Part shown: piece after piece, positions 899 to 30,088 of the stretch | Numbering within the stretch: position 1 is the first letter of the stretch | Layout: each line of letters begins with the position of its first letter | Assembly (NCBI GenBank): GCA_038057055.1 | Contig: JBBUDY010000017.1 | Coordinates: 1 to 55,698, forward strand | Source of the DNA: Patescibacteria group bacterium | GTDB taxonomy: Bacteria; Patescibacteriota; Minisyncoccia; Phycocordibacterales; Phycocordibacteraceae | Reading direction: 5' to 3' | DNA: 55,698 nucleotides | Position numbers and translations under genes: made by a program | The notes under the pieces: model-generated | Database searches by the model: none | What the model was told of the DNA's origin: nothing | What the model saw: the letters and a program-made list of their open reading frames with translations, nothing else

Positions 899-904
899 TG
901 TCGC

Positions 905-2050: not shown

Positions 2051-2056
2051 TATACT
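2051..2056 (+). promoter_or_regulatory. -10 box TATACT, 8 nt upstream of the ATG at 2065
   Basis: Read directly in the sequence. Confidence 0.35.
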
Positions 2057-2064
2057 GAAAGGAA

Positions 2065-3188: not shown

Positions 3189-3200
3189 TTTATTTTCACT

Positions 3201-3482: not shown

Positions 3483-3486
3483 GCGG

Positions 3487-3492
3487 TATAGT
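3487..3492 (+). promoter_or_regulatory. -10 box TATAGT, 5 nt upstream of the pilB ATG
   Basis: Read directly in the sequence. Confidence 0.3.
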
Positions 3493-3497
3493 AAACT

Positions 3498-5267: not shown

Positions 5268-5281
5268 CCTTTCAGATGTAG

Positions 5282-5287
5282 TATACT
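5282..5287 (+). promoter_or_regulatory. -10 box TATACT, 7 nt upstream of the ATG at 5295
   Basis: Read directly in the sequence. Confidence 0.4.
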
Positions 5288-5294
5288 TTTAATA

Positions 5295-5699
5295 ATGGTA
5301 TATCGCGTATATCTTGTTGACGACGACCGGTTTCTCCTTGATCTCTATGCCGTTAAGTTTCGTGCTGCCGGTCATGAGGTAAGTGTCTTTGGAAGTGGAG
5401 AGGAGCTTCTGGCTGCTCTGCGAAAGGCGGATGCAAAGGCACCCAGCGTTATTCTCCTCGACCTTATTATGCCAGGCATCGGTGGGTTCGGAGCACTTGA
5501 AGTAATACGAAAGGAACATCTTGCGCAGGGTTCTAAGATAGTCATTCTCTCAAATCAGGGTCAAGATTCTGATATCGAAAAAGCGAAACAGCTGTCCGCT
5601 GATGGGTACATCATCAAGGCGTCTGCCATCCCGTCTGAAGTGTTTTCAGAAACTATTCGTACGATTGAATCCGGAGCGCCTCCTGCGAAGATGCAGTAA
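5295..5699 (+). CDS. Stand-alone CheY-like response regulator receiver protein
   Basis: Acidic pocket LVDDD, phospho-acceptor context ILLDLIMPG, and a conserved Lys context (YIIKA). No output domain. Confidence 0.85.
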   Translation: MVYRVYLVDDDRFLLDLYAVKFRAAGHEVSVFGSGEELLAALRKADAKAPSVILLDLIMPGIGGFGALEVIRKEHLAQGSKIVILSNQGQDSDIEKAKQLSADGYIIKASAIPSEVFSETIRTIESGAPPAKMQ

Positions 5700-5704
5700 C
5701 TCTC

Positions 5705-6766: not shown

Positions 6767-6768
6767 CT

Positions 6769-7974: not shown

Positions 7975-8047
7975 ACTATCCACACCCCCTGTTTCTGTGC
8001 AGAGACGTATGGCGTACAATAGAGCCATTAGCCACATACAACATACT

Positions 8048-8566
8048 ATGTACATAAATCGTTCCCGAGGTTTTACGCTTATCGAACTTCTTGTCGTTAT
8101 CGCTATTATTGGCGTTCTCTCGGCAGTGGTGCTCGCTTCTCTGAATACTGCCCGCAATAAGGGTAATGACGCCGCTATTCAGTCTGATATGGCGACTATC
8201 CAAACTCAAGCAGAGATTTACTACGGCGGTGCTGGTGCTAATTCATATGGACCCGCACAAGCTTGGACTGCAGGTACCGCAACGGGAGACCCTCTTGCCG
8301 GCGGTTCTGTTAGTTGCGCCACCGGGATGTTCAGCGACACGACTATAAAAAAGGCTCTTGCCGCCGCTGACCTGGTGAACGGAACTTTTGAAGTAGGTTG
8401 TGCCGCCGTCGCCTCTGGCTCGCTTACGGGGTATGTCGCTGCCGCGCAGCTCACCTCGGGTGGGTGGTGGTGTGTCGACCACACCGGCGTGGGCAAGAAG
8501 GAGACTGGAGCGTGGCCGGGCGCAACAATGCCAGTAGATGGAGGAGGTAGTCCGGCGTGCCCATAG
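8048..8566 (+). CDS. Major type IV pilin paralogue 1 (prepilin-type N-terminal cleavage/methylation domain)
   Basis: Leader MYINRSRG then FTLIELLVVIAIIGVLSAVVLASL. Start set at the short class III leader rather than the longer ORF start. Confidence 0.85.
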   Translation: MYINRSRGFTLIELLVVIAIIGVLSAVVLASLNTARNKGNDAAIQSDMATIQTQAEIYYGGAGANSYGPAQAWTAGTATGDPLAGGSVSCATGMFSDTTIKKALAAADLVNGTFEVGCAAVASGSLTGYVAAAQLTSGGWWCVDHTGVGKKETGAWPGATMPVDGGGSPACP

Positions 8567-8616
8567 TTATTGAAACGTCTTTATTCTAATTCCTTAAACA
8601 ATCTAAACAATCTTGC

Positions 8617-9099
8617 ATGAAATGTAAACAGTACCGAGGTTTTACGCTTATCGAACTTCTTGTCGTCATTGCTATTATCGGTGTCCTCTCGGCAGTGGTG
8701 CTTGCTTCCTTGAATTCTGCCCGCTCGAAAGGCAATGATGCTGGCGTGAAGGCAAATCTCGCTACGGTGAGCACTCAAGCGGCACTCTATCTGTCAGACA
8801 ATAACAACACCTATGGAACAGTATCTAATGGCGTGTGTCCTACAGTAGCCGGAACGGGCAACGTCTTCACCAATATAACTATCGTAAGTGCGATAAGCGC
8901 GGCACTTACTGATGCTGGCGGTAGTAGCACCGCGACCTGCTACGCGGCACCAACTGGCTATGCAGTGGCAGTGTCGCGACCGGCAGATGTTGCAACGACC
9001 ACCTCGACGTATTGGTGCGTCGATAACACGGGTGAACGCTGTGGTGTCAATACGGCCATCACTGGTCCGTCATGCGGCACGTGCATTACGAGACAGTAA
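8617..9099 (+). CDS. Major type IV pilin paralogue 2
   Basis: Leader MKCKQYRG then FTLIELLVVIAIIGVLSAVVLASL. The C-terminal part differs from paralogue 1. Confidence 0.85.
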   Translation: MKCKQYRGFTLIELLVVIAIIGVLSAVVLASLNSARSKGNDAGVKANLATVSTQAALYLSDNNNTYGTVSNGVCPTVAGTGNVFTNITIVSAISAALTDAGGSSTATCYAAPTGYAVAVSRPADVATTTSTYWCVDNTGERCGVNTAITGPSCGTCITRQ

Positions 9100-9112
9100 T
9101 CTTGTAAAGTAA

Positions 9113-9148
9113 GAAACCCGCGTCCGCCAGTTGGCGGACGCGGGTTTC
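9113..9148 (+). terminator. Strong stem-loop after the pilin genes (intrinsic terminator candidate)
   Basis: GAAACCCGCGTCCGCC-AGTT-GGCGGACGCGGGTTTC forms a 16-bp perfect stem. Confidence 0.65.
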
Positions 9149-9163
9149 TGCTATCATGCGTTT

Positions 9164-9928
9164 ATGTTTCTTCTCGGCTCTATTTTCCTGTTCTTTCTCG
9201 GTGCAATTATCGCGAGCTTTATTGGTGTCGTTGTTGTGCGACTTAATACCGGAGGGAGTTTTCTCACCGGTCATTCCCGCTGTGACGCGTGTACCGTGCC
9301 CCTACTGCCTCTTCAGTTGGTGCCGATTTTTTCGTATCTCGCCTCTGGAGGAAATGCGCACTGTTGCGGCACACGCCTCTCTCCACTCGCCCCTCTTTCA
9401 GAATTTCTTCTCGGTGTACTCTTTGTCCTTGCGTATAACATAATCGGTCTTGTGCATGCGCTCCCGTTTATGCTTGCGGCACTTACCACACTGCTTGCGC
9501 TTGTGCTCTATGATCTGGCACATCAGATACTCCCAACGCCACTTCTTATCGTTTTCATTGTGACAAGTGCGCTTTCTGGCTACCTTCTCGCAGATTCTGT
9601 AGGGGCATTTATAAGCTCGGTCTTTGTTGCACTCATTCTCGCTGGTATTCTCGCAGGTATTCATTTTGTATCGCGAGGTCGTGCAATGGGCTTTGCCGAC
9701 GCACCGTTTGTCTTCGGCTGTGCGCTTCTCGTAGGTCCTGCCGCATTGCCTGGTTTTATTTTTTCGTTTTGGATTGGGGCAGGGATTGGGATAGTCCTGT
9801 TGGTTCGTAGGCCACGAGGCTCTAGAATGGGAGTTGAGGTGCCGTTCGCACCCTTTCTGGCTGCAGGATTTCTCCTCGCGTACTTTACCCAATGGAACCC
9901 TTTTACCGTAATCGAGGCTTTACTCTAA
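9164..9928 (+). CDS. pilD: Prepilin peptidase (A24 family, PilD-like)
   Basis: N-terminal Cys motifs (RCDACTV ... HCCGTRLS). Multi-TM body with Asp motifs (LYDLAH, GFADAP). Start moved to MFLLGS because the ORF-track start lies inside the terminator hairpin. Confidence 0.75.
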   Translation: MFLLGSIFLFFLGAIIASFIGVVVVRLNTGGSFLTGHSRCDACTVPLLPLQLVPIFSYLASGGNAHCCGTRLSPLAPLSEFLLGVLFVLAYNIIGLVHALPFMLAALTTLLALVLYDLAHQILPTPLLIVFIVTSALSGYLLADSVGAFISSVFVALILAGILAGIHFVSRGRAMGFADAPFVFGCALLVGPAALPGFIFSFWIGAGIGIVLLVRRPRGSRMGVEVPFAPFLAAGFLLAYFTQWNPFTVIEALL

Positions 9929-10515
9929 TCGAGATGCTCGTCGTGCTTGGAATCATAGCGGCGGTGACGAGTGTTGCGCTTGCGAGCCAAAGTTCTTTCA
10001 ATAGGACGCTGATACTTGCAAACACAGCATACGACATCGCGCTTACCTTGCGTTCTGCTGAAAACTTCGGGATTGGGAGCCGGGCGATTTCTGGTACCGC
10101 GAACGCAGGATACGGTGTCCATTTCCAGAGAGGGACATCTGATTCGTTCCTACTTTTTGCCGATACGTCGCCTGCAAACAATTTTTCGTGCACCAGACCT
10201 GACTGTAGACCGGGAGACCAGCTCTATTCAATTGACGACACGCTTGTGCAGACCTACACACTTGGGAACAACATCATCGTGAGCAATTTCTGTGTCTTCT
10301 CAGATCGATGGCAATGCGCATCGACCGGCGACGTCAGCTCTCTTGATATCGTGTTTGCACGTCCTAATCCGGATGCATCCATACGGACAGATGGTTCGTC
10401 GTATAGTTCTTATACGGCGGCATGTCTTGTTATCAGTTCAGATAGGGGAGGGTTCCGTTTCGTTTCGGTTGAAGCGTCTGGTCAAATAATCCCAGCAGCC
10501 TCTTCATGCCCATAA
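9892..10515 (+). CDS. Prepilin-type minor pilin/pseudopilin
   Basis: Leader MEPFYRNRG then FTLIEMLVVLGIIAAV. Confidence 0.75.
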   Translation: MEPFYRNRGFTLIEMLVVLGIIAAVTSVALASQSSFNRTLILANTAYDIALTLRSAENFGIGSRAISGTANAGYGVHFQRGTSDSFLLFADTSPANNFSCTRPDCRPGDQLYSIDDTLVQTYTLGNNIIVSNFCVFSDRWQCASTGDVSSLDIVFARPNPDASIRTDGSSYSSYTAACLVISSDRGGFRFVSVEASGQIIPAASSCP

Positions 10516-10517
10516 AT

Positions 10518-11969
10518 ATGGAAGCACGAAGCACGAAGCACGAAGCACGAAACGGATACACGCTCATTGAACTCGTTGTTGCAGTTGGGCTGTTTGCATT
10601 GGTCATGACGCTCGCTTCAGGTGCTTACCTCCTCATGATTGACCTCAATCGACAGGCACAGGGTATTGCCACGGGTGTTGATAATCTCTCCTTCGCACTC
10701 GAGACTATGACGCGCAGTATCCGTACCGGTACCGCGTATAGGTGTGGGACCTTGGGAAGTGAGGGTGATTGTCCGGGCGGCGCAAATAGTTTTTCCTTCA
10801 CCGATGCGAGCGGCGCGGACATTACCTACGCACATGGTTTCCAGGCTGACGAGGTGACGGGTGCTATCGTCAAAAATGGCACGATAATTCTCACTGATCC
10901 GTCAGTATCCGTTTCTTCTCTCATGTTTTACGTTTCAGGAACGGCGACGGTCGCTTCTGCCGATTTTGCTCAGCCGTATGTGACCATCATCATTTCGGGT
11001 ACCGTTTCTTCTGGCCCTCGGAAGACTCCCCAAGTCTTTACGGTCGAGACTGGTGCCACCATGCGTGGTATCGACCTCAACATCGCATCAGCGCCGTCTG
11101 AAGACATCCCAACTCCCACGTGCACACTCTCAGCTGATTCTGCCTTTGTTCTACCAGGCGGTTTGCCCAAATTATCTTGGACAACCAGATTCTCAGATTC
11201 AATTTCAATTGATCAAGGTATAGGACCGGTCTCACCAGCCTTTTATGGTTCGGAGGACGCCACTACTCCACTCGCCACCACCACCACCTACACCGCCACC
11301 GCGACAAACAGTGCGGGAGGGTCGGCAACCTGTAGTGCAACGGTGTCGGTATCGGGAGTCGGTTCCTGCTCGGCAACTCACTTCGGTTGTATCAGCGGAA
11401 CTTCCGCTAACAATGTAGAGGACACTAATGTGTGGACGTGGACGTGTACTGGTGCAAATGGTGGCACGACCGTCTCGTGTTCAGAGGAGAAACCGACCAA
11501 TCTGAGCGGCTACGCGTGGTCTCCCCTCATTGGTTGGATTAGTTTCAGCGGTCCCAATTATGGCGTATTAGAAAACAAGACCACCGGAGCGTTGTATGGA
11601 TACGCATGGTCCTCACGTATCGGCTGGATTAGTTTTAATGCATCTGATGGAACGCATACAGCACCGCGCGTTGATTTCACCACGGGGAACATTTCTGGTT
11701 GGGCACGCGCCTGTGCGGCATTCGCTGATAAAACTACGTGCAGTGAACCGCTTGATAGCAAGAGTGGTGGTTGGGATGGCTGGATTGCTCTCTCGGGTAT
11801 TGCTCAAGATGGCTCAAGGTATGGCATTACTCAGAGTTCGACATGTGAATGGACTGGATTTGCATGGGGCTCTACAGGTATTGGCGCGATCAGTGTGCGC
11901 GGCACCGCTGCCGACTATTCTACCTATGGAGTGACCGGAGATGATCCAGCCGCGTGCGCTCCCCACTAA
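10518..11969 (+). CDS. Large prepilin-type minor pilin (candidate tip adhesin) with Ig-like segment and Trp-rich C-terminal repeats
   Basis: Leader MEARSTKHEARNG then YTLIELVVAVGLFALV. C-terminal units GYAWSPLIGWISF, GYAWSSRIGWISF and GFAWGSTGIGAIS. Confidence 0.7.
   Translation: MEARSTKHEARNGYTLIELVVAVGLFALVMTLASGAYLLMIDLNRQAQGIATGVDNLSFALETMTRSIRTGTAYRCGTLGSEGDCPGGANSFSFTDASGADITYAHGFQADEVTGAIVKNGTIILTDPSVSVSSLMFYVSGTATVASADFAQPYVTIIISGTVSSGPRKTPQVFTVETGATMRGIDLNIASAPSEDIPTPTCTLSADSAFVLPGGLPKLSWTTRFSDSISIDQGIGPVSPAFYGSEDATTPLATTTTYTATATNSAGGSATCSATVSVSGVGSCSATHFGCISGTSANNVEDTNVWTWTCTGANGGTTVSCSEEKPTNLSGYAWSPLIGWISFSGPNYGVLENKTTGALYGYAWSSRIGWISFNASDGTHTAPRVDFTTGNISGWARACAAFADKTTCSEPLDSKSGGWDGWIALSGIAQDGSRYGITQSSTCEWTGFAWGSTGIGAISVRGTAADYSTYGVTGDDPAACAPH
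10521..10551 (+). repeat. Heptanucleotide tandem repeat (GAAGCAC) x4 plus a partial copy, inside the leader-peptide codons
   Basis: Perfect copies at 10521, 10528, 10535 and 10542, then GAA. Confidence 0.95.
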
Positions 11970-11979
11970 GTATGTGTTG

Positions 11980-11985
11980 TATACT
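11980..11985 (+). promoter_or_regulatory. -10 box TATACT, 9 nt upstream of the ATG at 11995
   Basis: Read directly in the sequence. Confidence 0.35.
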
Positions 11986-11994
11986 AATTATTGT

Positions 11995-13401
11995 ATGAAC
12001 CTGCGTCGTTTCTTCTCATACTCTTTGGTTGCAGTGGGAGCTCTGATTCTCTCGGCTGGTCTTCAAGTGTACGCTTTTTCAGAACCGAATACGGCCCCTC
12101 CAAACGCCGATGTTGACGCCCCTTTAACCACCGGTGCGACCGAGCAATCAAAGAGTGGCGGTCTGATTCTTAATACTGGCGGTTCCACAAACGGTCTCAT
12201 TGTACAATCCGGTAACGTTGGTGTTGGGACAACAAGCCCCACCGCGCTTCTTGGCATACAAGGAGCGATAGGTGTTAACAGCTCACAACTCTATCTCGCG
12301 GCGAACGGCAAGGTTGGTATCGGAACGACAGTGACGTCGAATAACGAACACACCATTATATATTTGCCAAACAATAAGGATTTGGCTGGTGTTAATTCTG
12401 GGGGAGCTGCGGCTTTTCCGCTTATAGGTATGGGTAGTTCCGATAAGATAACCATTGACCGAGATGCGCTCGGCTCTACATTTGGTGGCAACGTCGGTAT
12501 CGGGACGACCGTGGCGAATGACAAATTAGATGTAGCAGGAAGGATAAGAATTTCAACAAATGCAACTTCTCCAGGGACGAACATAGCATCGATATATAGA
12601 GGAGCAGCGACGGGGCTGACTCTTACCGGAAACACAGCCTCTACGTACTCTTGGGATTTGGTAAATAATTTAGGAAATGATGTGTTATTTAACCCTGTGG
12701 GAACAACCGTAGCGTCATTCGGTGGCAGTGTTGGCATCGGGACGGTAGCACCAGACTTTAAACTCGATGTGTATGGCGCCCTTGGTGCACTCAGGTTGAA
12801 TAATCCTTCCGGAGATTTGGATACTCATCTACAAGTGAAGGATTATCTCTGGCGGCTCATTGTTGGCGGTACCGGTACGAGTTATGGGGTCGGTGCAGGT
12901 GGACTCGGTTTTACCTCTGGCGGTACCTATGCACTGAAACTGTTAGGCAACTATGTCACTGTCCCTTATTCGCTCGGTGTCGGGATGGCGAATAATCCAG
13001 GAACGTATACATTAGCGGTAACCGGCGATGCGTGGGTAACGAGTGGCGCATGGTCGGGATCGGATCTGCGCTGGAAGAAAAACATTCAACCGATAACCGG
13101 TGCTCTAGATACAGTTATGCAACTCTCTGGAGTCTCTTATCTTTGGAGAAAGGATGAATTTCCACAGAATAATTTTGACGACAAAGCCCACTTTGGATTG
13201 ATTGCTCAAGACGTGGAGAAGATAGTACCTGAACTGGTTACAACTGGACCGGATGGCTATAAGGGTATTGATTACAATGGACTCGCGCCCCTGCTTATTG
13301 GGTCTACGCAAGAACTACAGAGAATCATTATGAATCAGCAAAATGAAATAGAAGAGTTGAAGGCAAGAGTGTCTGATTTGGAGAATAAGATGCTGAAGTA
13401 A
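11995..13401 (+). CDS. Secreted tail-fibre-like protein with C-terminal S74 intramolecular-chaperone (endosialidase chaperone) domain
   Basis: Signal/TM segment MNLRRFFSYSLVAVGALILSAG. Repeated G(N/K/S)VG(I/V)GT motifs. C-terminus SDLRWKKNIQP...YLWRKDE...HFGLIAQDVEKIVPELV...IDYNGLAPLLIGSTQEL plus a coiled coil matches the S74 pattern. Confidence 0.8.
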   Translation: MNLRRFFSYSLVAVGALILSAGLQVYAFSEPNTAPPNADVDAPLTTGATEQSKSGGLILNTGGSTNGLIVQSGNVGVGTTSPTALLGIQGAIGVNSSQLYLAANGKVGIGTTVTSNNEHTIIYLPNNKDLAGVNSGGAAAFPLIGMGSSDKITIDRDALGSTFGGNVGIGTTVANDKLDVAGRIRISTNATSPGTNIASIYRGAATGLTLTGNTASTYSWDLVNNLGNDVLFNPVGTTVASFGGSVGIGTVAPDFKLDVYGALGALRLNNPSGDLDTHLQVKDYLWRLIVGGTGTSYGVGAGGLGFTSGGTYALKLLGNYVTVPYSLGVGMANNPGTYTLAVTGDAWVTSGAWSGSDLRWKKNIQPITGALDTVMQLSGVSYLWRKDEFPQNNFDDKAHFGLIAQDVEKIVPELVTTGPDGYKGIDYNGLAPLLIGSTQELQRIIMNQQNEIEELKARVSDLENKMLK

Positions 13402-14014
13402 TGCAGGCTACAATGCAATCTTCTCGTGCCGGGTTCACGCTTATTGAGACCATGGTTGCGATAACCATACTTACGTTTGCAATGGCAGGACCTATGTTTA
13501 CCGCCAGTCGTGCCATTGTTGCGGCACAGACCGCACGCGACCAACTCACTGCCATCTATCTTGCTCAAGAAGGTATCGAACGTGTGCGTGCGATGCGTGA
13601 TAATGCATATTTGGCCGCGTATCATACGGGTGGTGCAGATATCTCGAGCACTGCGTGGAGTGATTTTCTCACCGGGTCAGGTTCCGCATCGATTTCTAGA
13701 TGCATCACATCAAATGACGCACCAAACGCCTGCACGCTCGATTCAGTGGGGGATGGGTCTCTCGAACAATGTATAGCTGCTGATTCCTGTGAACCGTTGT
13801 ACCTTACCGGGTGTACGAATGGTCCAGAGGGGCTCTCCTGTACGCCGCCGAATATGTATACACAGCGCGATCTCCCTGGGAGCGTACTCTCGCCCTTTGT
13901 CCGCACGATCCAAGCGACTATCATTACTCCACATGAAGTAAAAATAGTTTCGACCGTCTCATGGACGTACCACAACACGCCGTATTCTGTGATGGTCTCG
14001 GACCATCTTTCTTC

Positions 14015-14024
<10 letters not shown>
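13401..14024 (+). CDS. Prepilin-type minor pilin
   Basis: Leader MQATMQSSRAG then FTLIETMVAITILT. The ATG overlaps the previous stop (TAATG). Confidence 0.75.
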
Positions 14025-16535
<2,511 letters not shown>

Positions 16536-16548: not shown

Positions 16549-16872
16549 ATGGCGACTACGGAGGAAGTAAAGAAATTGGCGGCGCTCGCGCGGATTAAGA
16601 TAGGCGATGCGGAGCTTGAGAATTTCACGAGCGAGTTTGACGCGATTCTTGCGTACGTGGGACAGCTTGAGAAACTTGATCTACCAACTGGTTCAGAGAG
16701 AGAGAAGCCACTTTTACACAACGTGATGCGGGAAGACGGCGAGCCGCACGAGGCGGGGAAGTATACCGAGAAGCTTGCAGAGCAATTTCCACAGCGCTCC
16801 TCCTCCGCTGAAGCTACGGAGGACAAGGAGGGCGTATATTTGGAAGTAAAGCAGATTATTACTCATGAGTAA
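16549..16872 (+). CDS. gatC: Glu/Asp-tRNA amidotransferase subunit C
   Basis: N-terminus VKKLAALARIKIGDAELENFTSEFDAILAYVGQL is typical of GatC. Overlaps the gatA start. Confidence 0.85.
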   Translation: MATTEEVKKLAALARIKIGDAELENFTSEFDAILAYVGQLEKLDLPTGSEREKPLLHNVMREDGEPHEAGKYTEKLAEQFPQRSSSAEATEDKEGVYLEVKQIITHE

Positions 16873-18322
16873 GAAGCCAAATGAGATGACGATTGTAGAG
16901 GCTGCCCGCGCGCTGCGCCTGCCTGCGCATGCAGGGCAGGCAGGCGCGCGGGAGTTGACCGTGCGTGAACTCTGGGACGCGTGCGCCGAGGCGGCGCACG
17001 CAAAGAATCCTGAATTGAATGCATTCCTTGAGATTTTTGATATTGATGAAAGAGCAATAGAAGCAGCGCAGATTCGTATTGATACGGAGAAAGATGCGGC
17101 ACCGCTTCTCTGCGGCATTCCGCTCGCAATCAAAGACAATATTTTGATAGAGGGGAAGATTGCGAGTGCCGCGAGCAAGATGCTCGAGAATTATACAGCG
17201 ACCTATGACGCCACGGTTATTAAAAAGCTGAAGGAGGCGGGAGCGCTTTTTGTCGGTCGCACCAACATGGACGAGTTCGCAATGGGCTCTTCAACCGAGC
17301 ATTCTGCCTACGGCGCAACCAAGAATCCACACGACACCTCCCGTGTGCCGGGCGGCTCCTCCGGCGGCTCCGCCGCCGCTGTTGCCGCGCACCTGTGTAT
17401 TGCCGCGCTCGGTACCGACACAGGCGGCTCCGTACGCCAACCAGCAGCACTCACGGGTCTTGTGGGGCTCAAGCCGACCTATGGCGCCGTCTCGCGCTCG
17501 GGGCTCATCGCGATGGGCTCATCGCTCGACCAGGTCGGCCCGCTCACGAAGTCAGTTGAAGACGCGAAGATCCTTTTTGATGCCATTTGCGGTCAAGATG
17601 TGCTCGACGCAACGACTATTCCAGCTAATCTCTATCCTGCTTATGAGGTTCAAAAAAAATTGCGCATCGGGATGCCGCGACACCTACTTGAAAAGGGAAT
17701 TGATGCAGATGTGTCAGCAGCCTTTGATGCAACGCTAGAGAAGCTTGCGGGAGAAGGGCACACAATCGTCGATGTTGCATTGCCGACCAGCGAATACGCG
17801 CTTGCAGCGTACTACGTCATTATGCCGGCCGAAGTATCGGCGAATCTTGCACGTCTCGACGGTATCCGCTACGGCCACGCTGTGCGCGGCAAAACATTGC
17901 TCGATGATTACATTAATTCTCGTACTGAAGGCTTTGGCGAAGAAACGCGCCGCCGCATCTTGCTTGGCACCTTCGTGCTCTCTTCTGGCTATATTGATGC
18001 CTATTACCGCAAGGCAGACGCGGCACGCGCGATACTGCGTCGCGAATATGGGAGAGCATTTGAATCGTGTGATGTAATCGCATTCCCGACGACGCTCTCT
18101 CCCGCCTTTAAGTTTGGCGAGAAGGGAGATCCGGTGGCCATGTATCTCGAAGACATTTTCACCGTGACCGCGAACCTCACCGGTATGCCAGCAATCTCGG
18201 TGCCGATGAATATGGTAGAAAAAGAGGGCAAGAAACTTCCAGTCGGCATCCACTTCACCGCGCCACATCAAGCAGAAGAAACTCTTTTTACTATCGGTGA
18301 AGCAGTACAGCGTACTTCGTAG
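16865..18322 (+). CDS. gatA: Glu/Asp-tRNA amidotransferase subunit A (amidase signature family)
   Basis: Amidase signature GGSSGGSAAAVA. About 485 aa. Follows gatC. Confidence 0.95.
   Translation: MSKKPNEMTIVEAARALRLPAHAGQAGARELTVRELWDACAEAAHAKNPELNAFLEIFDIDERAIEAAQIRIDTEKDAAPLLCGIPLAIKDNILIEGKIASAASKMLENYTATYDATVIKKLKEAGALFVGRTNMDEFAMGSSTEHSAYGATKNPHDTSRVPGGSSGGSAAAVAAHLCIAALGTDTGGSVRQPAALTGLVGLKPTYGAVSRSGLIAMGSSLDQVGPLTKSVEDAKILFDAICGQDVLDATTIPANLYPAYEVQKKLRIGMPRHLLEKGIDADVSAAFDATLEKLAGEGHTIVDVALPTSEYALAAYYVIMPAEVSANLARLDGIRYGHAVRGKTLLDDYINSRTEGFGEETRRRILLGTFVLSSGYIDAYYRKADAARAILRREYGRAFESCDVIAFPTTLSPAFKFGEKGDPVAMYLEDIFTVTANLTGMPAISVPMNMVEKEGKKLPVGIHFTAPHQAEETLFTIGEAVQRTS
16915..16947. repeat. 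GC-rich palindromic element, long variant (GCGCCTGCCTGC-GCATGCAGG-GCAGGCAGGCGC), in-frame inside gatA
   Basis: 12-nt arms are perfectly complementary. 33 nt equals 11 codons and encodes LPAHAGQAGA. Confidence 0.9.
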
Positions 18323-19031: not shown

Positions 19032-19158
19032 CACGGTTGTGAGCTTGTGTCAAGTACCGTCCCCCATCAGAATTCTCTGAAAACGGGTACAGTACCGACA
19101 GGCATGAAGCTCCGAAAAGAACACAGAAGCCGCGACATATGTCGCGGCTTCTGTGTTT
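19011..19158 (+). repeat. att-like repeat copy A (tRNA-Met 3' part plus downstream block ending in a terminator hairpin)
   Basis: Shares GCAACACGGTTGTGA, AGTACCG and GTACAGTACCG.CAGGCAT with copies B and C. Ends with the hairpin ACACAGAAGCCGCGAC-ATAT-GTCGCGGCTTCTGTGT (19121-19156). Confidence 0.7.
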
Positions 19159-21193: not shown

Positions 21194-21248
21194 GGGGATC
21201 GGAATCGAACTACGGCGGGCAAAGCAAAAATGGGGACCGGAATCGAAC
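21194..21248. repeat. Two inverted-orientation tRNA 3'-end-like fragments (GGGGATCGGAATCGAAC and GGGGACCGGAATCGAAC)
   Basis: Each is the reverse complement of a T-loop plus acceptor 3' strand (GTTCGATTCCG.TCCCC). No complete cloverleaf can be drawn. Confidence 0.6.
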
Positions 21249-21271
21249 TTGAGCATCTAGGCCGTAGAAAG

Positions 21272-21397
21272 TCCAGTTCGATTCCGACCCCCGCAACACG
21301 GTTGTGACGCCAGGAACCAGTACCGACCCACATTGGGGTCAGTACAGTACCGCCAGGCATCACGTACGCAAAAGCCGCTCGAAAGAGCGGCTTTTGC
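21272..21397 (+). repeat. att-like repeat copy B (decayed tRNA-Met 3' fragment plus 86-nt block plus terminator hairpin)
   Basis: TCCAG-TTCGATTCCGACCCCCGCAACACGG matches the tRNA-Met 3' part with a 7-nt deletion. The 21293-21378 block matches 36729-36814 at 80 of 86 positions (hand count). Hairpin GCAAAAGCCGCTC-GAAA-GAGCGGCTTTTGC. Confidence 0.8.
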
Positions 21398-21483
21398 GTT
21401 GTGGCACCTTGGTAGGGACCCTAGTATAATGGTGGCAAATACAATGAAATCTTGAATTTATCAATCTCTAAACCTCGTACCTC

Positions 21484-22362
21484 ATGAGCCACCTAATACC
21501 AACTACTGCGATCGATGCTCTAATGAAAGGACCGTCGCTCACCAAGACCCAGCAGGTCGCTGCGTTGCATAATCATATCCGTGACCTTCTGGAGCCGGAT
21601 TACCATATCTTCCTTCAAGGGTCATACAAAAACGATACCGCTCCTTCTGACATCAACGATGTGGATATTGTTGCGGTCCGTAAGAAGACCTACAGCGGGA
21701 CCTATTCTCCGCACCCAACCACCACAACTATTGCCTGGAAAACAATCGTCGACGAGATAATCACGAAGCTTCTTCAGGACAATACGTATGGGTGGAATAT
21801 CGAATCAGGCGATAAGTGTATCAAGCTAGAGGGAGTCTTTAATGTAGACGTTATCCCGGCTGTCGTCTACAACGACCACGAGGAGGACCCAATTGTTGTG
21901 TATTCGTTCAAAGATGGAAAGGAAATAATTAATCGTCCTCGACTCCACTACACGAACGGTGTAGCGAAGCACGAGGCAACCTCAAAACTCTATAAGCCGA
22001 CCGTACGCATGTTCAAGAACTGGAAGCAGAATCATTACGGACAGGAAAAGGATACCGTCTCATCGTTCAAGATTGAGGCACTCGTCCACAGTGCAGACGA
22101 TGCTCACTTTGTTAGCGATGGCGCTGCCTGTTTCATTTTGGTCGGTGAGAACATCCTTGAGCGACTCAATCTCCGGTCTCTTGCCCCGACATCGATTATG
22201 AGTGTGTGCGGTGGGGAGGACATCACAGCAAACTGGGACCTGGCAGCGCGCAGACGATTCGTGGATCAACTCACTGCTTCAGTGCAGCACGCACGTCAAG
22301 CATATAACGCAGGAAACCAGTCTCTAGCGGAAGCCCATTGGGATCTAGCTTTCAATCAATAG
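21484..22362 (+). CDS. Pol-beta-fold nucleotidyltransferase of the SMODS/CD-NTase type (CBASS cyclase candidate)
   Basis: LQGSYKNDTAPSDINDVDIV gives the GS...DxD motif. A third acidic residue lies in FNVDVIPAV. About 290 aa. Followed by a 2TM-beta effector gene. Confidence 0.6.
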   Translation: MSHLIPTTAIDALMKGPSLTKTQQVAALHNHIRDLLEPDYHIFLQGSYKNDTAPSDINDVDIVAVRKKTYSGTYSPHPTTTTIAWKTIVDEIITKLLQDNTYGWNIESGDKCIKLEGVFNVDVIPAVVYNDHEEDPIVVYSFKDGKEIINRPRLHYTNGVAKHEATSKLYKPTVRMFKNWKQNHYGQEKDTVSSFKIEALVHSADDAHFVSDGAACFILVGENILERLNLRSLAPTSIMSVCGGEDITANWDLAARRRFVDQLTASVQHARQAYNAGNQSLAEAHWDLAFNQ

Positions 22363-22364
22363 TT

Positions 22365-22994
22365 ATGCGCAAACATGCTCCAGGCTTCGGGTTTTATTCC
22401 GTCTTTACTCTCATCACTATCGTTCCAGCAACGATTATCGCGCAAGCAATAGCTAACGCGCTTACGACCCTAGCGGGCCCGTTTGTTCAGTTTGCGGAAT
22501 GGGGACTACTACAACCGCCGACCGCTATCGCGATTATTGCCTTACTGTTTGTTTTCTACGACCGATTCTTTTGGAAAATACCACCGTTCACCTTGATTCA
22601 CGGTATTCCGAATATCAATGGACGCTACGAAGGGGAAGGCGAATCGAGTTATCAAGATGGTTTCAAGTATCCGGTCATAATCGAGGTTCATCAGACCCTT
22701 CTCAATACGCTCGTTTGTCTGTACACCGAACGTTCTGGCTCACATAGCGTTATGTCCGCCATGGGACAAAACGAGCGGAGGAACCAGTACCTATCGTACT
22801 CGTACAAGAACGCACCAAAGACCGTAACGGATGATCGTGATATGCGGCCGCATGATGGTTTTGCATGCCTAGAGATATTCGATAATGGCGACCGGCTAGA
22901 AGGATTCTACTTTAATGATCCTCGTGAGCGTGAAAGTTTTGGAAAGCTCGTACTAAAGCGAGTGAGTCGAAATACACAAGGCAAGTTTAAATAA
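22365..22994 (+). CDS. Two-TM plus beta-rich C-terminal domain protein (S-2TMbeta/Cap15-like CBASS effector candidate)
   Basis: Two N-terminal TM helices, then a ~130-aa beta-rich domain (INGRYEGEG...LEGFYFND...GKLVLKRV). The ATG lies 2 nt after the NTase stop. Confidence 0.55.
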   Translation: MRKHAPGFGFYSVFTLITIVPATIIAQAIANALTTLAGPFVQFAEWGLLQPPTAIAIIALLFVFYDRFFWKIPPFTLIHGIPNINGRYEGEGESSYQDGFKYPVIIEVHQTLLNTLVCLYTERSGSHSVMSAMGQNERRNQYLSYSYKNAPKTVTDDRDMRPHDGFACLEIFDNGDRLEGFYFNDPRERESFGKLVLKRVSRNTQGKFK

Positions 22995-24321
22995 CAGATA
23001 CACTTTTACTCTTCAGGGTAATCTTGCCGCGCAACTGTTCAAGCAACTGGCGCTTTTCCTCAATAGTTCCTTCCTCGAGTAGATACTTCGCGTATCGCTT
23101 AACATCCATCTCGAGCGCTTTTTCCTTTTCTTTTACGCCCAGTACTTGTGAGCGCAGTTTGTTGAATCGCGCAACCTCCTTATCTATGAGATGTCGTGCG
23201 CCAAGGCGGTCTATCTCTATTCCGTCGATGATTTCCGATAGTTGCTCTATGAGATTGTCTTCGCGGATATATGGATTCTTGCACCGTCGGTCTTGGGCGC
23301 GAGTGCATAAGTAATATCTGTAAATCTTTGTCGTTCCAAGCATCTTTACGAATTTCTCTTTATCCATGCAGGTGACGCCGGAACCGCACTCACCACAGGT
23401 CATCAAGCGAGTGAAGGCAAATTCACCGACTCGCTTTTTTGGATTCGTTTCCGATACGATTTTCTCTCGCACCAGTTCGAAGAGTTCTCGAGTGATAAGC
23501 GCTTCATGCTTGCCGACATACCAGTTGCCGCTTCCGCGCGGGTACTCGAAGACCCCGCAATAAAATGGATTTTTTAGGAGCTCGTAGAGAGTACCGATAC
23601 TCATATTTTTTCCGCTTCGGGTCGAGAATTTAACTTCTTCTCGTAGCCAGTGGTATATCTTCACTCCGCTCCACCGCTCTTTCCCAACCTTCTCGAATAT
23701 CATCTTCACGATAGGGGAGCGTATCGGGTCGAGTAGGTACTCGCATTTGTGGTCCGACCTCGTGTCATTGAGATATCCGACTGGTGCCCAGCCGGGAAGC
23801 ATACCCATCTCGGCTCGTGTTCGCAGACCGCGCTTCACGTTGATACTCTTATTATCGTTTTCAAGCTTCGCCTGCGAGCAAAGGATCATCAGTAGGAACT
23901 TTTCATTCGGATTGTTCGAGAATTTCTGACTATACGTCTGTATCTGCACGAGCACTCCTGCATCCATCATGTCGACGACCCGTCCGAGGTCGCCCGCGTT
24001 ACGGCTGATGCGGTCGGCCGCCCACGTCAGTATCCCGTTGAACTTCCCGGCACGCATTTCGTTGATCATCTCGTTGAATACCGGCCGCTGGCTAGCCTCT
24101 TTTGCCGAGTGGCTCTCGCGTTTGACCTCTACCACCTCAAGACCGTCCCGAGCCGCCAGCGCTGACATCTCCTTGATCTGCGAATCGATGGACAGCGCCT
24201 GCTGTTCATCTTGCTCAGTGCTCTTTCTGGCGTAGAGGCAGTACCGCACCTTTACCGCCTCCTTGGCCTCTGGTTTAAGCCCTAGAACCCTATCTGTGCC
24301 CTCAAATACCGCCTTATTCAT
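22987..24321 (-). CDS. Large serine recombinase (resolvase catalytic domain, recombinase domain, zinc ribbon and coiled coil)
   Basis: Catalytic context YCLYARKSTEQDEQ. ADRISRN motif. Cys cluster CGECGSG...CTRAQDRRC. C-terminal coiled coil. Confidence 0.85.
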   Translation of the reverse strand: MNKAVFEGTDRVLGLKPEAKEAVKVRYCLYARKSTEQDEQQALSIDSQIKEMSALAARDGLEVVEVKRESHSAKEASQRPVFNEMINEMRAGKFNGILTWAADRISRNAGDLGRVVDMMDAGVLVQIQTYSQKFSNNPNEKFLLMILCSQAKLENDNKSINVKRGLRTRAEMGMLPGWAPVGYLNDTRSDHKCEYLLDPIRSPIVKMIFEKVGKERWSGVKIYHWLREEVKFSTRSGKNMSIGTLYELLKNPFYCGVFEYPRGSGNWYVGKHEALITRELFELVREKIVSETNPKKRVGEFAFTRLMTCGECGSGVTCMDKEKFVKMLGTTKIYRYYLCTRAQDRRCKNPYIREDNLIEQLSEIIDGIEIDRLGARHLIDKEVARFNKLRSQVLGVKEKEKALEMDVKRYAKYLLEEGTIEEKRQLLEQLRGKITLKSKSVSVI

Positions 24322-24390
24322 TGCATTGTGGTTACTTGCTAATTCGCCCTACCACAATGGATGACGCAACCCGCGCTGTGAGTCCAGACC

Positions 24391-25050
24391 CTACTTTTTC
24401 TTATAATTCTTCAAGAATTCTTCGATATTGACCCCATCGCGTTTAAGTTCGCGTTCTAGTTCCTTTTTGAATTTCTCTTGTGGCTTGCCGGTGCCCCAGT
24501 CTGAGATACGCTCTTCGTCCGACATTACATGTGCTGAGCTATGTATCTCATCGTGCGTTTCGTTTTGTTCTGCGCTCTTGCTTGCTAAGAATTTCTCTTT
24601 TAGCTCTTCACTTCGAATGAATGTACCCAACATTCCCGATATACGACAAGCCCTGACGATTTGTTCACGTTGTTCATCAGGAAGTATTCCATCGTTATCA
24701 ACTAAATGATATTCGTGTCGAATGCGTTCGGCGAACCACACATGATTATTCTTAAGCCAGAATATGAGCGCGGTCAGATGGCCTTCCTGGATCTTTTTTA
24801 ATAGCCCTGATATGGCAATGTCGTTGAGATACTCGCGACCAGTGTTGATTGCCTTGTTGGCGAGACCTTTGAATTCCTTATCTTCCGAGAGCCACTTATA
24901 GTATGTTGAACGACCGACCCCGACACGTTCGCAAGCGAGTTGCACGATGCAACATTTTGTCAGATGTTCAAGAACAGCAAGTTTCTGTTCGGCGGTCTTT
25001 ACAGAAAGCGTTGCCAGACGCTTTTTCTTAGCCAACTGCTTTCCAGTCAT
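24391..25050 (-). CDS. HTH protein resembling phage small-terminase/Homeodomain-like regulators
   Basis: ACERVGVGRSTYYKWLSEDKEFKGLANKAI...ALIFWLKN follows the TerS-like HTH pattern. Function is uncertain: regulator, recombination directionality factor or TerS. Confidence 0.4.
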   Translation of the reverse strand: MTGKQLAKKKRLATLSVKTAEQKLAVLEHLTKCCIVQLACERVGVGRSTYYKWLSEDKEFKGLANKAINTGREYLNDIAISGLLKKIQEGHLTALIFWLKNNHVWFAERIRHEYHLVDNDGILPDEQREQIVRACRISGMLGTFIRSEELKEKFLASKSAEQNETHDEIHSSAHVMSDEERISDWGTGKPQEKFKKELERELKRDGVNIEEFLKNYKKK

Positions 25051-25053
25051 ACA

Positions 25054-26376
25054 CTAGGAAATTTTCTTCGCCTTTTTTCCGGTTGTCTTCTCCCAGCGGG
25101 CAATAATTACTGCGGTATATATCTCGCTCTTTTCCATCACGTAACAGCGACGACCTAGCTTATTAGCTGCAATCAGCGTTGAGCCACTACCCCCAAAGGG
25201 TTCAAGAACAAGATCACCGCGTTTCGTCAGTACCTTGAGATACGGCAGGAGAATTTCAACAGGTTTAGTTCCGAAGATGATTCCCTGGCCAGACGACTTC
25301 TCGTCTGCCGCAACAAAGTCTACGAAGTCAGTTGGGCAATACTTCTTGCCTTTCCCAGGTCCCTCCCAGTGCGGACTACCAGAGGTTGCGAAGAGCGCGG
25401 TCTCATACTGCTCTTGAAAGAGAGGATCGTCTTCTGGCTCATCGTTTAGTACGACTTCACCTGAGGTACCAACAAGCGCTACATCGTGCTTGCTAAAGAA
25501 TTTGTACTTGGCAGAAAAACCTTGTACGCGGTTGCTCAGATGCCATACAATGGTGTTGCGGTAGCGCCAATGCTTCTCGAGCGCGTTCCATATAGTTCTC
25601 AAATTCTTAGGGTTCTCATAGACGATGATTGAGAAGTCAGTTTTTTGCGCCTGAGCTACATTGGCCATCCAGAGGTCGGTAAAGTTCTCTGGTAGTGAGT
25701 CGGTGCCGAGATACTTGCGGTCTCGCTTTAAGCCAAAACCTTCAGTCGGCTTGCCGTTTTTCTTTTTGCCCCGAAGGTAATCAAGAATATAGGGCGGATC
25801 TGTGAAGCACATATCTGCCTTCTCTCCGCCCATTAGAGCGAGCATATCAGCCTCGATCATGCTGTCACCACAACGAAGACGCGAACCATCCAAGTCGAAC
25901 ATATCACCCTTCTTAATCGTTACCTCGCTGATGTTTAATTTTTCCAATTCACGCTTAAGGTCAAAATGCTCGGGTGTAGTTTCAACCTCGAATATTTCAT
26001 CAAGCTCAATTGTGTCGAAACCTACATCTTTCAGGAAATCCTCGCCGAAATCCTTAAGTATTGCAAGGTCAAATTCTCCGAGATTCTTGTTCAAACGAAT
26101 GTTTAATTCTTTTTCGCGTTCTATCTCCGGTATATTCACATACACTACAGGCATTTCTTTGAGCTCAAGATCTTTGGCGACTTTCAGACGGAAGTGTCCA
26201 CCTACAACTACATTCTCGCGACCTTCGGCTTTATTGCACACGATAGGGTCCACCATACCGAAACGCTGCAAGCTCTCCTTCAATGCAGCAATTTGTGATT
26301 CGTTCCACTTACGGGGATTATATTCCGACGGTTTCAATTCACTGATTGGCACATACACGATATTTAAGTTTTCCAT
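25054..26376 (-). CDS. ParB-like nuclease domain fused to an N6A/N4C DNA methyltransferase
   Basis: N-terminal ParB box (LKPSEYNPRKW). Motif IV TDPPY. C-terminal AdoMet motif LEPFGGSGSTLIAA (beta-class order). Confidence 0.85.
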   Translation of the reverse strand: MENLNIVYVPISELKPSEYNPRKWNESQIAALKESLQRFGMVDPIVCNKAEGRENVVVGGHFRLKVAKDLELKEMPVVYVNIPEIEREKELNIRLNKNLGEFDLAILKDFGEDFLKDVGFDTIELDEIFEVETTPEHFDLKRELEKLNISEVTIKKGDMFDLDGSRLRCGDSMIEADMLALMGGEKADMCFTDPPYILDYLRGKKKNGKPTEGFGLKRDRKYLGTDSLPENFTDLWMANVAQAQKTDFSIIVYENPKNLRTIWNALEKHWRYRNTIVWHLSNRVQGFSAKYKFFSKHDVALVGTSGEVVLNDEPEDDPLFQEQYETALFATSGSPHWEGPGKGKKYCPTDFVDFVAADEKSSGQGIIFGTKPVEILLPYLKVLTKRGDLVLEPFGGSGSTLIAANKLGRRCYVMEKSEIYTAVIIARWEKTTGKKAKKIS

Positions 26377-26720
26377 AACAAAAAACGAATAGCTTATAAG
26401 GCATATTCGGTAGCTCGAACAGGAGGTTGCTTATTCAGTTAAATTAACTATACACCCCTGCTGTGGTGTGCAAATTATTTTGAGAGTATTTTCCGGCTCT
26501 TGAAGAGCCGCACTGCTTTTTCTTCAATTGGACACTTCAATCAACGTTTATAACAGAAAGTATATGTCAATACTGTCAATGAAAGCCGCTTAAAATAGTT
26601 ATCCACAAGGCCCTTCGCAAACGTCGAAATCTAAGCTAGGGTGCAAGGCGATAGCTGAAAGTGCTATCATTCTTTTACAACCGAATATGCGCCTAAACCC
26701 TTCGGGGCATGGCGTAAAAA

Positions 26721-26765
26721 ACCGTCCAAGGTAAAAAGCTCCTCGTCAGGAGCACCTTGGACGGT
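26721..26765 (+). promoter_or_regulatory. Compound stem-loop in the leader of the nuclease/R-M operon
   Basis: ACCGTCCAAGGT ... ACCTTGGACGGT forms a 12-bp perfect stem. It encloses an inner hairpin GCTCCT-CGTC-AGGAGC. Further CCGTCCAAGG/CCGTCCAAC boxes lie at 26840-26849 and 26859-26867. Confidence 0.6.
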
Positions 26766-26851
26766 CCCTCCGGGAAACTGGGGGTGGGTGGCGCAAGTCA
26801 TCGCCTGGCGGGGAGCTTTTTGTATCCCGCTAGTTAAATCCGTCCAAGGAA

Positions 26852-27844
26852 ATGAAAACCGTCCAACCCGACCAAGCGGGTCATCTTGGATTTTTAGATC
26901 AATACGCAACCGACAGCGAAATATTTTCGCTTCGTTCTGGTAAGCAAATTTCTATACCAAAGTATTTCCTTGACCTTAAGAAATGGGAAGGAGTACCGAT
27001 TGCCAACACATATAACAATAAAGCGGTCATCGATTGGAACGGTGAGCCGGTATTCGCCGAGTTAGCCGTTCTGCGACTATTCCAGTCGAACGGATGGAAA
27101 GGCGTGTGGGTCGATTCGTATCGGAGAAAATTCAGAGTCGGTCTGCCAGACGTGGTCGATCCGATAGAATTACCGGAAGCACAAACACAGCTATTAAATA
27201 CTCTTCGAGAAAAGACTGGACGTTTCGGAGGATGTTGGGACTTACTGCTGTGGAAGGGCGACGACACACTTTTCGTCGAATTAAAGCGACGAGGGAAAGA
27301 TAGAATACAGATCACCCAAACTGACTGGCTTTCAGTGGCTCTCGAGTCGGGTCTGGCTAAAGATAACTTTGCGATCGTCGAATGGGATTTTTCTTTGCCG
27401 AACCGTCTTATATTTGAGTATCCAGAGGACAGAAAATTCTTTGTCGATCTACTATCTGGCGGAGACGAAGAAAAATTCGACAAAGAATTTTCCGATTACT
27501 TCGATTTCAACCACCAGGCTATCAAGCGTTGGGTGTTTAATAAAACGAGCAAGAAAGTACTAGCAGAGCTTATTGAGAAATATGGTGGTAAGTGTCAGCT
27601 TCGGATTCATCCCGAGTGCAGTACGACCGGTGTGTGGCATCCGGATCATATAATCCCGCTCGCATCCGCAGAATTACATAGGAAACTGAGACATCTCACA
27701 AACAATTCGGATGGCTCTAAGCCCGAGTCGGTGAGCTACGGATCAAACCACCCGAAAAATCTCACATTAGCCTGCGAGAAGTGCAATTTGCGCAAAAAAC
27801 ACCGCATAATCTGGCCAGTACCTAAAGATGAAGAAAGTTGCTAA
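26852..27844 (+). CDS. VRR-NUC (PD-(D/E)xK) nuclease domain fused to a C-terminal HNH endonuclease
   Basis: GCWDLLLW...TLFVELKRRGKDRIQITQTDW matches the VRR-NUC pattern. HPDHIIP...NLTLACEKCNLRKKH matches HNH. Confidence 0.7.
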   Translation: MKTVQPDQAGHLGFLDQYATDSEIFSLRSGKQISIPKYFLDLKKWEGVPIANTYNNKAVIDWNGEPVFAELAVLRLFQSNGWKGVWVDSYRRKFRVGLPDVVDPIELPEAQTQLLNTLREKTGRFGGCWDLLLWKGDDTLFVELKRRGKDRIQITQTDWLSVALESGLAKDNFAIVEWDFSLPNRLIFEYPEDRKFFVDLLSGGDEEKFDKEFSDYFDFNHQAIKRWVFNKTSKKVLAELIEKYGGKCQLRIHPECSTTGVWHPDHIIPLASAELHRKLRHLTNNSDGSKPESVSYGSNHPKNLTLACEKCNLRKKHRIIWPVPKDEESC

Positions 27845-30086: not shown

Positions 30087-30088
30087 CT

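Follow-up and report, generated by a model that had tools for sequence, protein, structure and literature searches.

A dispersed 18-bp palindrome in coding genes of Patescibacteria and its lengthened copy in gatA

The gatA locus and its palindrome

The subject of this analysis is a contig of 55,698 nt from a Patescibacteria group bacterium (JBBUDY010000017.1 of assembly GCA_038057055.1; the window, i.e. the whole stretch of 55.7 kb), in which the gatA gene, preceded by ligA and gatC, contains a palindrome near its 5' end. The stretch concerned reads GCC CGC GCG CTG CGC CTG CCT GCG CAT GCA GGG CAG GCA GGC GCG CGG GAG. The initial annotation had described perfect arms of 12 nt, and a repeat search agrees: GCGCCTGCCTGC (16915-16926) and GCAGGCAGGCGC (16936-16947) are complementary without mismatch. 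The comparisons below show that the gatA palindrome is one of the dispersed copies of an exact 18-bp palindrome, whose unit is CCTGCCTGC|GCAGGCAGG. It belongs to a repeated family, as had been proposed, and the window holds three copies in total, all of them in coding DNA and in one shared frame (Table 1).

Table 1. Features of the window and insertion sites of the 18-mer
Feature	Position	Strand	Description
gatA host gene	16865..18322	+	485 aa; TIGR00132, 537 bits
Inserted DNA in gatA	16918..16944	+	27 nt, CCTGCCTGC GCATGCAGG GCAGGCAGG; codes LPAHAGQAG
Left half-site CCTGCCTGC	16918..16926	+	
Extra 9-mer GCATGCAGG	16927..16935	+	hairpin loop; tandem copy of right half-site
Right half-site GCAGGCAGG	16936..16944	+	
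Host bases GCG	16915..16917	+	end of Leu17, start of Arg18; chance extension of left arm to 12 nt
Host bases CGC	16945..16947	+	third base of split Arg codon and GC of Ala; bring right arm to 12 nt
Canonical 18-mer CCTGCCTGCGCAGGCAGG in eno	50250-50267		gene on minus strand; codes LPAQAG
Canonical 18-mer CCTGCCTGCGCAGGCAGG in glycerate 2-kinase (MOFRL family)	53344-53361		gene on minus strand; codes LPAQAG
Insertion site, gatA			CG^C GCG; filled/empty codon comparison (eight loci codon-aligned)
Insertion site, eno			CG^C GCT; codon-level comparison
Insertion site, glycerate kinase			GG^G GGA; codon-level comparison
Insertion site, gatC of L083			CG^C GAA; codon-level comparison
Insertion site, topA (30%-GC Nomurabacteria)			TGT GG^A GAA filled, TGT GGT GAG empty
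Cap15-like CBASS effector	22338-22994		in low-GC island
Large serine recombinase	22987-24321	minus	in low-GC island
ParB-domain DNA methylase	25054-26376	minus	in low-GC island
Type III-like Mod/Res pair	27828-32779		in low-GC island
1194-aa protein, no Pfam match	32745-36329		in low-GC island

The outermost three bases of each 12-nt arm (GCG and CGC) belong to the host, because the empty gatA site of L085 (CTT CGC|GCG CGG GAG) has the same flanks, the GCG at 16915-16917 being found there save for one synonymous change. L085 is a syntenic relative with gatA, eno, a gene for a phosphoenolpyruvate (PEP)-utilising enzyme and glycerate kinase. The insert splits the Arg18 codon after its second base (CG^C). 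The 33 nt, or 11 codons, given in the initial annotation are the correct extent of the palindrome; as an insertion, the segment measures 27 nt or nine codons against the empty site. The spacer between the arms had been read as a partial internal duplication, and this reading stands: GCATGCAGG is seen as a tandem copy of the right half-site because it is identical to the adjacent GCAGGCAGG at 8 of 9 positions, the difference being one G-to-T change. It also agrees at 8 of 9 positions with CCTGCCTGC on the minus strand.

The gatA palindrome is not a chance match. If at most one mismatch is allowed, the window has four occurrences of the 12-mer arm, where 0.28 would be expected and none of 100 shuffles reaches four, and the pattern CTGCCTGC-N0-30-GCAGGCAG occurs three times against none in shuffles. 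Logan contigs of two runs from two other studies (X1 and X3) equal the window over 16600-17300 with no differences and no indels, and three GatA proteins of the same species from other samples have LPAHAGQAG unchanged; no alternative form of the region was present among the Logan contigs. Folded as RNA, the 45-nt region is predicted to reach -36.7 kcal/mol (z = -4.2), the loop being formed by the extra 9-mer, and there is no indication that the predicted hairpin has a function.

Filled and empty sites in orthologous genes

The absence of the segment from GatA orthologues in general, on which its status as an insert depends, is seen in 109 of 120 sequences. These read EAARALR-ARELTVRELW with nothing between ALR and ARE. 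In the case of the enolase and the glycerate kinase of the window, alignment with the L085 proteins leaves one clean gap of six residues each (LPAQAG), and L085 contains no copy of the element in 21 kb. The host flanks of the eno copy lengthen its perfect palindrome to 50246-50271, and in the glycerate 2-kinase LPAQAG stands directly before the GGRNQE motif. In a fusion of a major facilitator superfamily (MFS) protein with spermidine synthase, six residues are found in the carrier only, among 40 aligned homologues. The comparison covers six genes, with five sites at the DNA level, and in each case the alignments show a difference that fits an insertion of exactly 18 bp, or of 27 bp in the gatA of the window. 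By the common rule a G directly precedes the 18-mer, which separates codon position 2 from position 3 and leaves no bases duplicated.

To locate the insert within GatA, the protein was modelled by AlphaFold2 from 70 orthologues (mean pLDDT 70.7, pTM 0.81). The model places residues 10-18 and 33-47 in helices and residues 19-32 in a coil, and the mean pLDDT of residues 21-30 is 57 vs 89 and 94 in the neighbouring blocks. An alignment to the GatA of P. aeruginosa (4wj3) puts the insert at the same helix-turn-helix junction. The predicted structure thus shows the insert as lengthening the loop between the first two helices. The initial annotation, which had the segment interrupting the N-terminal helix pattern, was right about an insertion relative to the orthologues and, by this model, wrong about the break of a helix.

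Target site and reading frame

The flanks of the 18-mer copies are G at position -1 (57%) and C at +1 (54%), and beyond that random, i.e. no longer target motif than G^C was found. Counts of direct repeats around the 18-mer are near chance at every length (13 vs 7.5 expected at 2 nt), and in these flanks no target-site duplication clearly above chance was found. The element's own ends are CCTG and CAGG.

Open reading frames (ORFs) were called confident if they had at least 150 aa and at least twice the length of the next-longest ORF at the site. By this measure a confident ORF surrounds 77 of the 151 copies collected from metagenomes and IMG/VR, and at 18 of the 151 there is no ORF of at least 100 aa. 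The frames are far from even in confident ORFs on contigs below 50% GC, where LPAQAG was counted 36 times, CLRRQ 9 times and PACAGR 4 times (chi-square p = 1.3e-8), vs 8:5:5 at sites without an ORF. The frame constraint looks like selection against Cys- and Arg-rich readings. The window copies and the orthologue copies examined all read (C)CTG CCT GCG CAG GCA GG, i.e. LPAQAG. The codons of the element are the same in genomes of 30% and 50% GC, which places the constraint on the sequence at the DNA level. Copies are also held by non-coding heptamer tracts and by partial tRNA-Leu-like repeats. As copies occur in heptamer tracts, in RNA-like repeats and in another repeat family, the event acts on DNA and not on proteins.

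Some of these sites deserve a separate description. At 11340-11800 of locus L110 two partial tRNA-Leu-like copies enclose a tRNA-Leu(gag) gene and a small GIY-YIG ORF. Both partial copies have the 18-mer, at an identical position within each (11371 and 11755), and the region looks like a duplicated integration site. Insertion of the 18-mer into a tRNA-Leu gene was considered there and rejected, since ARAGORN calls no tRNA even with the 18-mer deleted; the copies are therefore partial and tRNA-like. At 9497-9790 of L130 the 18-mer (9679-9696) falls within letters that cmscan aligns to a terminal loop of bacterial RNase P RNA; the match is weak (21 bits, E = 1.3e-4, gathering score 100). An adjacent GIY-YIG ORF has 16-nt inverted repeats on either side. 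In L133, L165, L173, L187 and L204 the 18-mer is nested at a fixed point of the other repeat family (GTCATCCCGAG^CGAAGCGAGGGA and variants), and this host repeat is itself translated through in some ORFs.

Distribution of the 18-mer

The exact 18-mer was found in at least 120 stretches of JGI/ENA metagenome contigs, where our own estimate of the chance expectation for the whole collection is about 1 at 40% GC. The contigs listed have 30-67% GC and many are from groundwater. IMG/VR has 25 stretches with the 18-mer and 42 copies of the 20-mer CCTGCCTGCCGGCAGGCAGG, in which CG is added at the centre. No A-like copy was present in 1.33 Mb of control loci from other genomes, and no other recurrent palindrome family was found in the carrier loci.

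The carrier lineages that could be named by protein homology are three, all of them Patescibacteria: the window's own group, Candidatus Nomurabacteria (30% GC) and a Parcubacteria/Kaiserbacteria-like lineage (57% GC). This shows that the element resides in the DNA of Patescibacteria, which are ultra-small bacteria, the named carriers all belonging to the Paceibacteria/Parcubacteria group, and it is identical in genomes from 30% to 57% GC or more. For GatA homologues with 77-83% identity the annotation gives Paceibacterota, Parcubacteria, Kaiserbacteria or Minisyncoccia (Patescibacteria, Candidate Phyla Radiation or CPR), and contigs nearly identical to the window originate in Hainich groundwater, in its 0.1-µm filter fraction. 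A GatA-based search of genome contigs returned mostly distant bacteria and three loci of 71-73% identity, none of which has the element. The host genes listed encode UvrA, an HtrA-like protease, RNase J, a UvrD-like helicase, isoleucyl-tRNA synthetase (IleRS), DnaE and TopA; further ones are PolA, a penicillin-binding protein (PBP), GyrA, GyrB and RpoB. In the window the density of the 18-mer is about 1 per 18 kb, with single copies 3-33 kb apart.

The IMG/VR loci L240-L334, on 'viral' contigs of 0.6-0.68 GC, have CCTGCCTGCCGGCAGGCAGG more commonly than the 18-mer, with up to 6 copies on one contig of 29.5 kb (L286, L297, L300). The frames of CCTGCCTGCCGGCAGGCAGG in IMG/VR are even, and some copies lie within heptamer-like tracts.

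Turnover and length variants

The insertion site is occupied in 11 of the 120 GatA orthologues, in several forms. LPAQAG is a perfect 24-nt palindrome in L082, and both L081 and L083 have the CG-centre variant, LPAGRQ, in perfect condition. Decayed forms are LPDGSQ and LPVGSQ, the latter with two substitutions in L235, and one form, GESASR, is past recognition; the long form of the window completes the list. LSAQTEE is another decayed variant at an occupied orthologous site, and copies of the 18-mer with one mismatch exist elsewhere. In relatives with the six-residue version the arms are conserved in the DNA: they are perfect in L081, L082, L083 and L234, and decayed in L235. Roughly half of the copies at orthologous sites are decayed, which argues against strong selection on individual copies.

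In a neighbour-joining tree the GatA carriers do not group together, and the sequences next to them are usually without the insert. The closest relative of the window's gatA allele (83%) has the other centre variant. Among TopA orthologues, 27 of 120 have an insert at one CPxC|GE site; the carriers have relatives of 93-95% identity without the insert, and they show no excess similarity across the flanking 80 residues.

Variants of the 18-mer differ mainly at the centre of the palindrome, where nothing, one nucleotide or CG is added, and some have an extra CTGC in one arm. The arms consist of short CCTG/CAGG repeats, which invite slippage. The initial annotation had suggested that the family evolves by in-frame internal duplication, and the lengths bear this out: the gatA copy is shown to be the unit plus 9 bp, the extra 9-mer being an 8-of-9 tandem copy of the right half-site; the step of 9 bp preserves the frame, and comparable expansions are the long TopA insert LPPARAGGAQAG and an array in L323. 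The latter (3927-4124) is a tandem array of ten 21-nt units (CCATGCCTACCGGCAGGCAGG), each a degenerate CG-centre variant.

Two sister assemblies of 6-10x coverage, L232 and L233, share 16.2 kb with the window at 99.95-99.99% identity, and the differences are confined to two places. One is the left arm of the eno palindrome at 50261-50268 (3 differences in L232, 1 in L233), the other a stretch of 26 nt in a Band_7 gene at 41351-41376 (5 in L232, where the ORF is split). Inverted repeats with GGC are a familiar context of Illumina errors. Hypermutation of the arms was considered and dropped, since at this coverage the differences in the eno arm are likely, though not proven, to be sequencing errors.

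Possible origin of the element

The explanation that we prefer, and that as a whole is probably correct, is that the 18-bp palindrome is selfish or neutral DNA, filtered by reading frame and subject to decay, and that the gatA copy was lengthened by a duplication of 9 bp. The element would act at the DNA level and land in coding, RNA-like and non-coding DNA alike. In essential genes it would be mostly copies with a length that is a multiple of three and with the mild LPAQAG frame that persist. Once fixed, copies would decay by point mutation or change their length by CCTG/CAGG slippage, and such slippage may have produced the long gatA variant, which is still in frame. The most speculative step is that a trans-acting machinery, conserved across the carriers, would recognise the hairpin or palindrome and place a copy at a nick or break. 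We give even chances to the existence of a dedicated mobilising enzyme of this hairpin- or palindrome-recognising kind. With some reserve, and inclining to doubt, we also consider that the exact 18-bp palindrome might be the true mobile unit, possibly the smallest known, copied without duplication by a machinery of Paceibacteria, perhaps of their phages, and repeatedly hitting the same loops of essential genes in separate lineages.

Several points weigh against the explanation just given. To our knowledge, no characterised transposition chemistry handles a unit of 18 bp without duplication and without a fixed target. No Y1 or REP-associated tyrosine (RAYT) transposase and no insertion sequence (IS) was found by Pfam among the 54 ORFs of the window, and small GIY-YIG ORFs adjoin a copy, i.e. 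lie within about 100 nt of it, in 2 of 153 loci. In GatA and TopA the same codon-level site is occupied in scattered lineages; this is unpredicted by random insertion and needs a hot spot, repeated precise loss or recombination. All GatA carriers except the window share a neighbouring one-codon deletion, and the same carriers show an excess of local similarity (1/500 permutations), so that part of the GatA pattern may reflect a single old allele that was passed on by descent or recombination. The variation is centred on the middle of the palindrome, as the junction of two ends would give. Finally, the copy number was seen on one contig of the source genome only.

The GIY-YIG nuclease was also considered as a candidate mobiliser in its own right, by an iterative search of all ORFs. 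It is present in 5 of 153 carrier loci vs 2 of about 18 control CPR loci, i.e. it is not enriched, and the candidate was rejected.

The main alternative to the step with a mobilising machinery is that the palindrome never moves and that the 18-mer is a scar, the joint of two identical ends of 9-10 nt at a double-strand break. It could be the footprint of an excised transposon with inverted terminal repeats that start with CCTGCCTGC, or the same short tail could have been added to both 3' ends. Footprints left by both inverted-repeat termini after excision of the P-element type are an established precedent. Such a joint would give a perfect palindrome and no target-site duplication, and the central variants together with the extra CTGC in an arm are the pattern expected of junctional diversity. 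Nevertheless, 1.1 Mb of carrier loci yielded no long element with half-sites at its ends, and the 'isolated' half-sites are nearly all decayed full copies. Moreover, copies are present in essential single-copy genes (topA, rpoB, gyrA/B, dnaE), where a full transposon should kill a haploid cell. We therefore consider a scar unlikely, if still a good deal more credible than the explanations that follow.

The remaining explanations are each contradicted by several results. It is improbable that the 18-mer is a functional site kept by selection, either a binding site of a dimeric protein of the parS/NBS/matS type or a DNA-uptake signal. The sequence is indeed unchanged in genomes of 30% to at least 57% GC, these bacteria possess genes for type IV pili and for the competence protein DprA, and the density of about 1 per 18 kb in the window falls within the range of chromosome-organising sites; but the decay of about half of the orthologous-site copies and the close relatives entirely without copies, such as L085, do not fit selection, uptake sequences and HIP-type motifs arise by substitution and not by block insertion, and an insertion mechanism would still be required. 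An old, vertically inherited loop of GatA, palindromic by chance and kept for protein function, might account for the deletion and the local similarity shared by the carriers other than the window, but the allele of the window retains the Glu codon that the other carriers have lost, the carriers are scattered among neighbours without the insert, and at least five further, unrelated genes have the 18-mer inside them (eno, glycerate kinase, gatC, topA and MFS/spermidine synthase), which makes this explanation very hard to believe. As to a sequencing or assembly artefact (a hairpin adapter or a chimeric junction), palindromes do break assemblies, the contigs of run X9 stop at 16935, and where the low-coverage sister assemblies differ at the element they do so only within the eno arm; yet the same sequence is found across independent studies and years and in NCBI, ENA, JGI and Logan assemblies, and the copies are in frame, biased in frame and accompanied by decayed orthologous versions, so that the chance of an artefact is practically negligible.

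Other features of the window

The region 21400-36800 is an island of low GC (0.39-0.49 vs about 0.52 elsewhere). Its genes (Table 1) include an effector of the cyclic-oligonucleotide-based anti-phage signalling system (CBASS). The island is missing from L085, where the distance from gatA to a Zincin_1 gene is 1.2 kb. At its left edge (21232-21292) there is a 28-nt inverted repeat with arms like tRNA 3' ends (GTTCGATTCCGACCCCC), which may be the remnants of attachment sites; no tRNA is predicted at this place by ARAGORN.

A complete type IV pilus cluster occupies 857-14512 (PilM, PilO, PilB, a response regulator, PilT, PilC, several pilins and a prepilin peptidase), and among the pilin genes a 486-aa ORF (11941-13401) has an endosialidase-chaperone (Peptidase_S74) domain. 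Two further repeats are unrelated to the 18-mer: a perfect 38-nt palindrome at 19120-19157, upstream of a histidine-phosphatase gene, and an inverted repeat with 18-nt arms and a 2-nt spacer at 9112-9149, between a pilin gene and the prepilin peptidase. The longest eno ORF (TTG at 50659) overlaps the end of the upstream gene for the PEP-utilising enzyme by 20 nt (50640-50659), and database eno calls begin 21 nt further in (403 aa).

Significance

The gatA copy alone is a modest curiosity. The family is unusual in that an exact 18-bp palindrome is present without duplication in essential genes over a wide GC range, with a patchy occupancy of the same sites in separate lineages. If the 18-mer is mobile, it would set a new lower size limit for mobile DNA and would imply a blunt, duplication-free, palindrome-specific chemistry of insertion without a characterised enzyme. 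It would then be relevant to the genome plasticity of the CPR and possibly be of use as a tool. Loops of conserved enzymes (GatA, TopA, RpoB, GyrA/B, DnaE) can acquire six to nine residues in one step even in minimal genomes, and LPAQAG-type inserts are to be expected by gene callers and aligners in Patescibacteria proteins. Strains can be told apart at a fine scale by whether copies are present or absent, and the element explains why, in metagenome assemblies, some contigs break and some base calls in its arms are wrong.

Comparison with known systems

The family appears to be undescribed: neither the 16-mer core nor LPAQAG was found in the papers searched, and keyword searches gave nothing on such elements in Patescibacteria. 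In its genic location the 18-mer resembles the Rickettsia palindromic elements (RPE), which are in-frame palindromic inserts in unrelated housekeeping genes (review PMC10969869). Both are palindromic repeats in unrelated coding genes, here six, that place a peptide at tolerated positions. RPE have about 100-150 bp and code for tens of residues (PMC10969869), whereas the 18-mer codes for six residues and is about eight times smaller. It also belongs to another phylum and has no sequence relation to RPE, i.e. neither the unit size nor the sequence of the ten RPE families is matched.

The small dispersed repeats (SDR) of heterocystous cyanobacteria are reportedly 21-27 nt long and mostly intergenic. 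By their description (PMC2884548) they appear to resemble the 18-mer in being very small, dispersed and hairpin-forming, in being precise insertions relative to orthologous loci, and in being nested in other repeats and in tandem heptamer tracts. By the same description, the 18-mer differs by its length, its perfect palindrome, its mostly intragenic position, its occurrence in Patescibacteria and its sequence.

Repetitive extragenic palindromic (REP) sequences and REPIN are likewise short G+C-rich palindromes with many dispersed copies, and the model of REP mobility involves a trans-acting RAYT enzyme that recognises the hairpin (PMC3116915, PMC3733652). REP sequences are imperfect palindromes of 20-40 bp with a GTAG/CGTC tag, extragenic and often in doublets, whereas the 18-mer is perfect, has no such tag and forms single units that are mostly intragenic (all three in the window). 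Short palindromes of a comparable type are known from organelles, the GC clusters of yeast mitochondria being one example. Those of Volvox mitochondria and plastids (PMC2670323) are G+C-rich in compact, A+T-richer genomes, are sometimes located in coding or RNA genes and are regarded as selfish with no known enzyme. Unlike the 18-mer, the organelle repeats belong to eukaryotes, are longer and more variable, and do not consist of one exact sequence.

Other classes differ more plainly. Miniature inverted-repeat transposable elements (MITE) need terminal inverted repeats, a target-site duplication and 50-500 bp, and the 18-mer fails on duplication and size. CRISPR repeats form a regular array with unique spacers, whereas the 18-mer copies are single and kilobases apart. 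DNA uptake and uptake signal sequences (DUS/USS) have a density of about 1 per kb, are substitutional in origin and genus-specific, whereas there are three 18-mer copies in 55.7 kb, inserted, in lineages across 30-57% GC. The highly iterated palindrome HIP1 (GCGATCGC) of cyanobacteria is, like the 18-mer, an over-represented exact palindrome within genes and with a preferred frame (PMC5861425, PMC4390886), but it has 8 bp and arises by substitution, whereas copies of the 18-mer are seen as length differences of 18 nt, or of 27 nt in the case of gatA.

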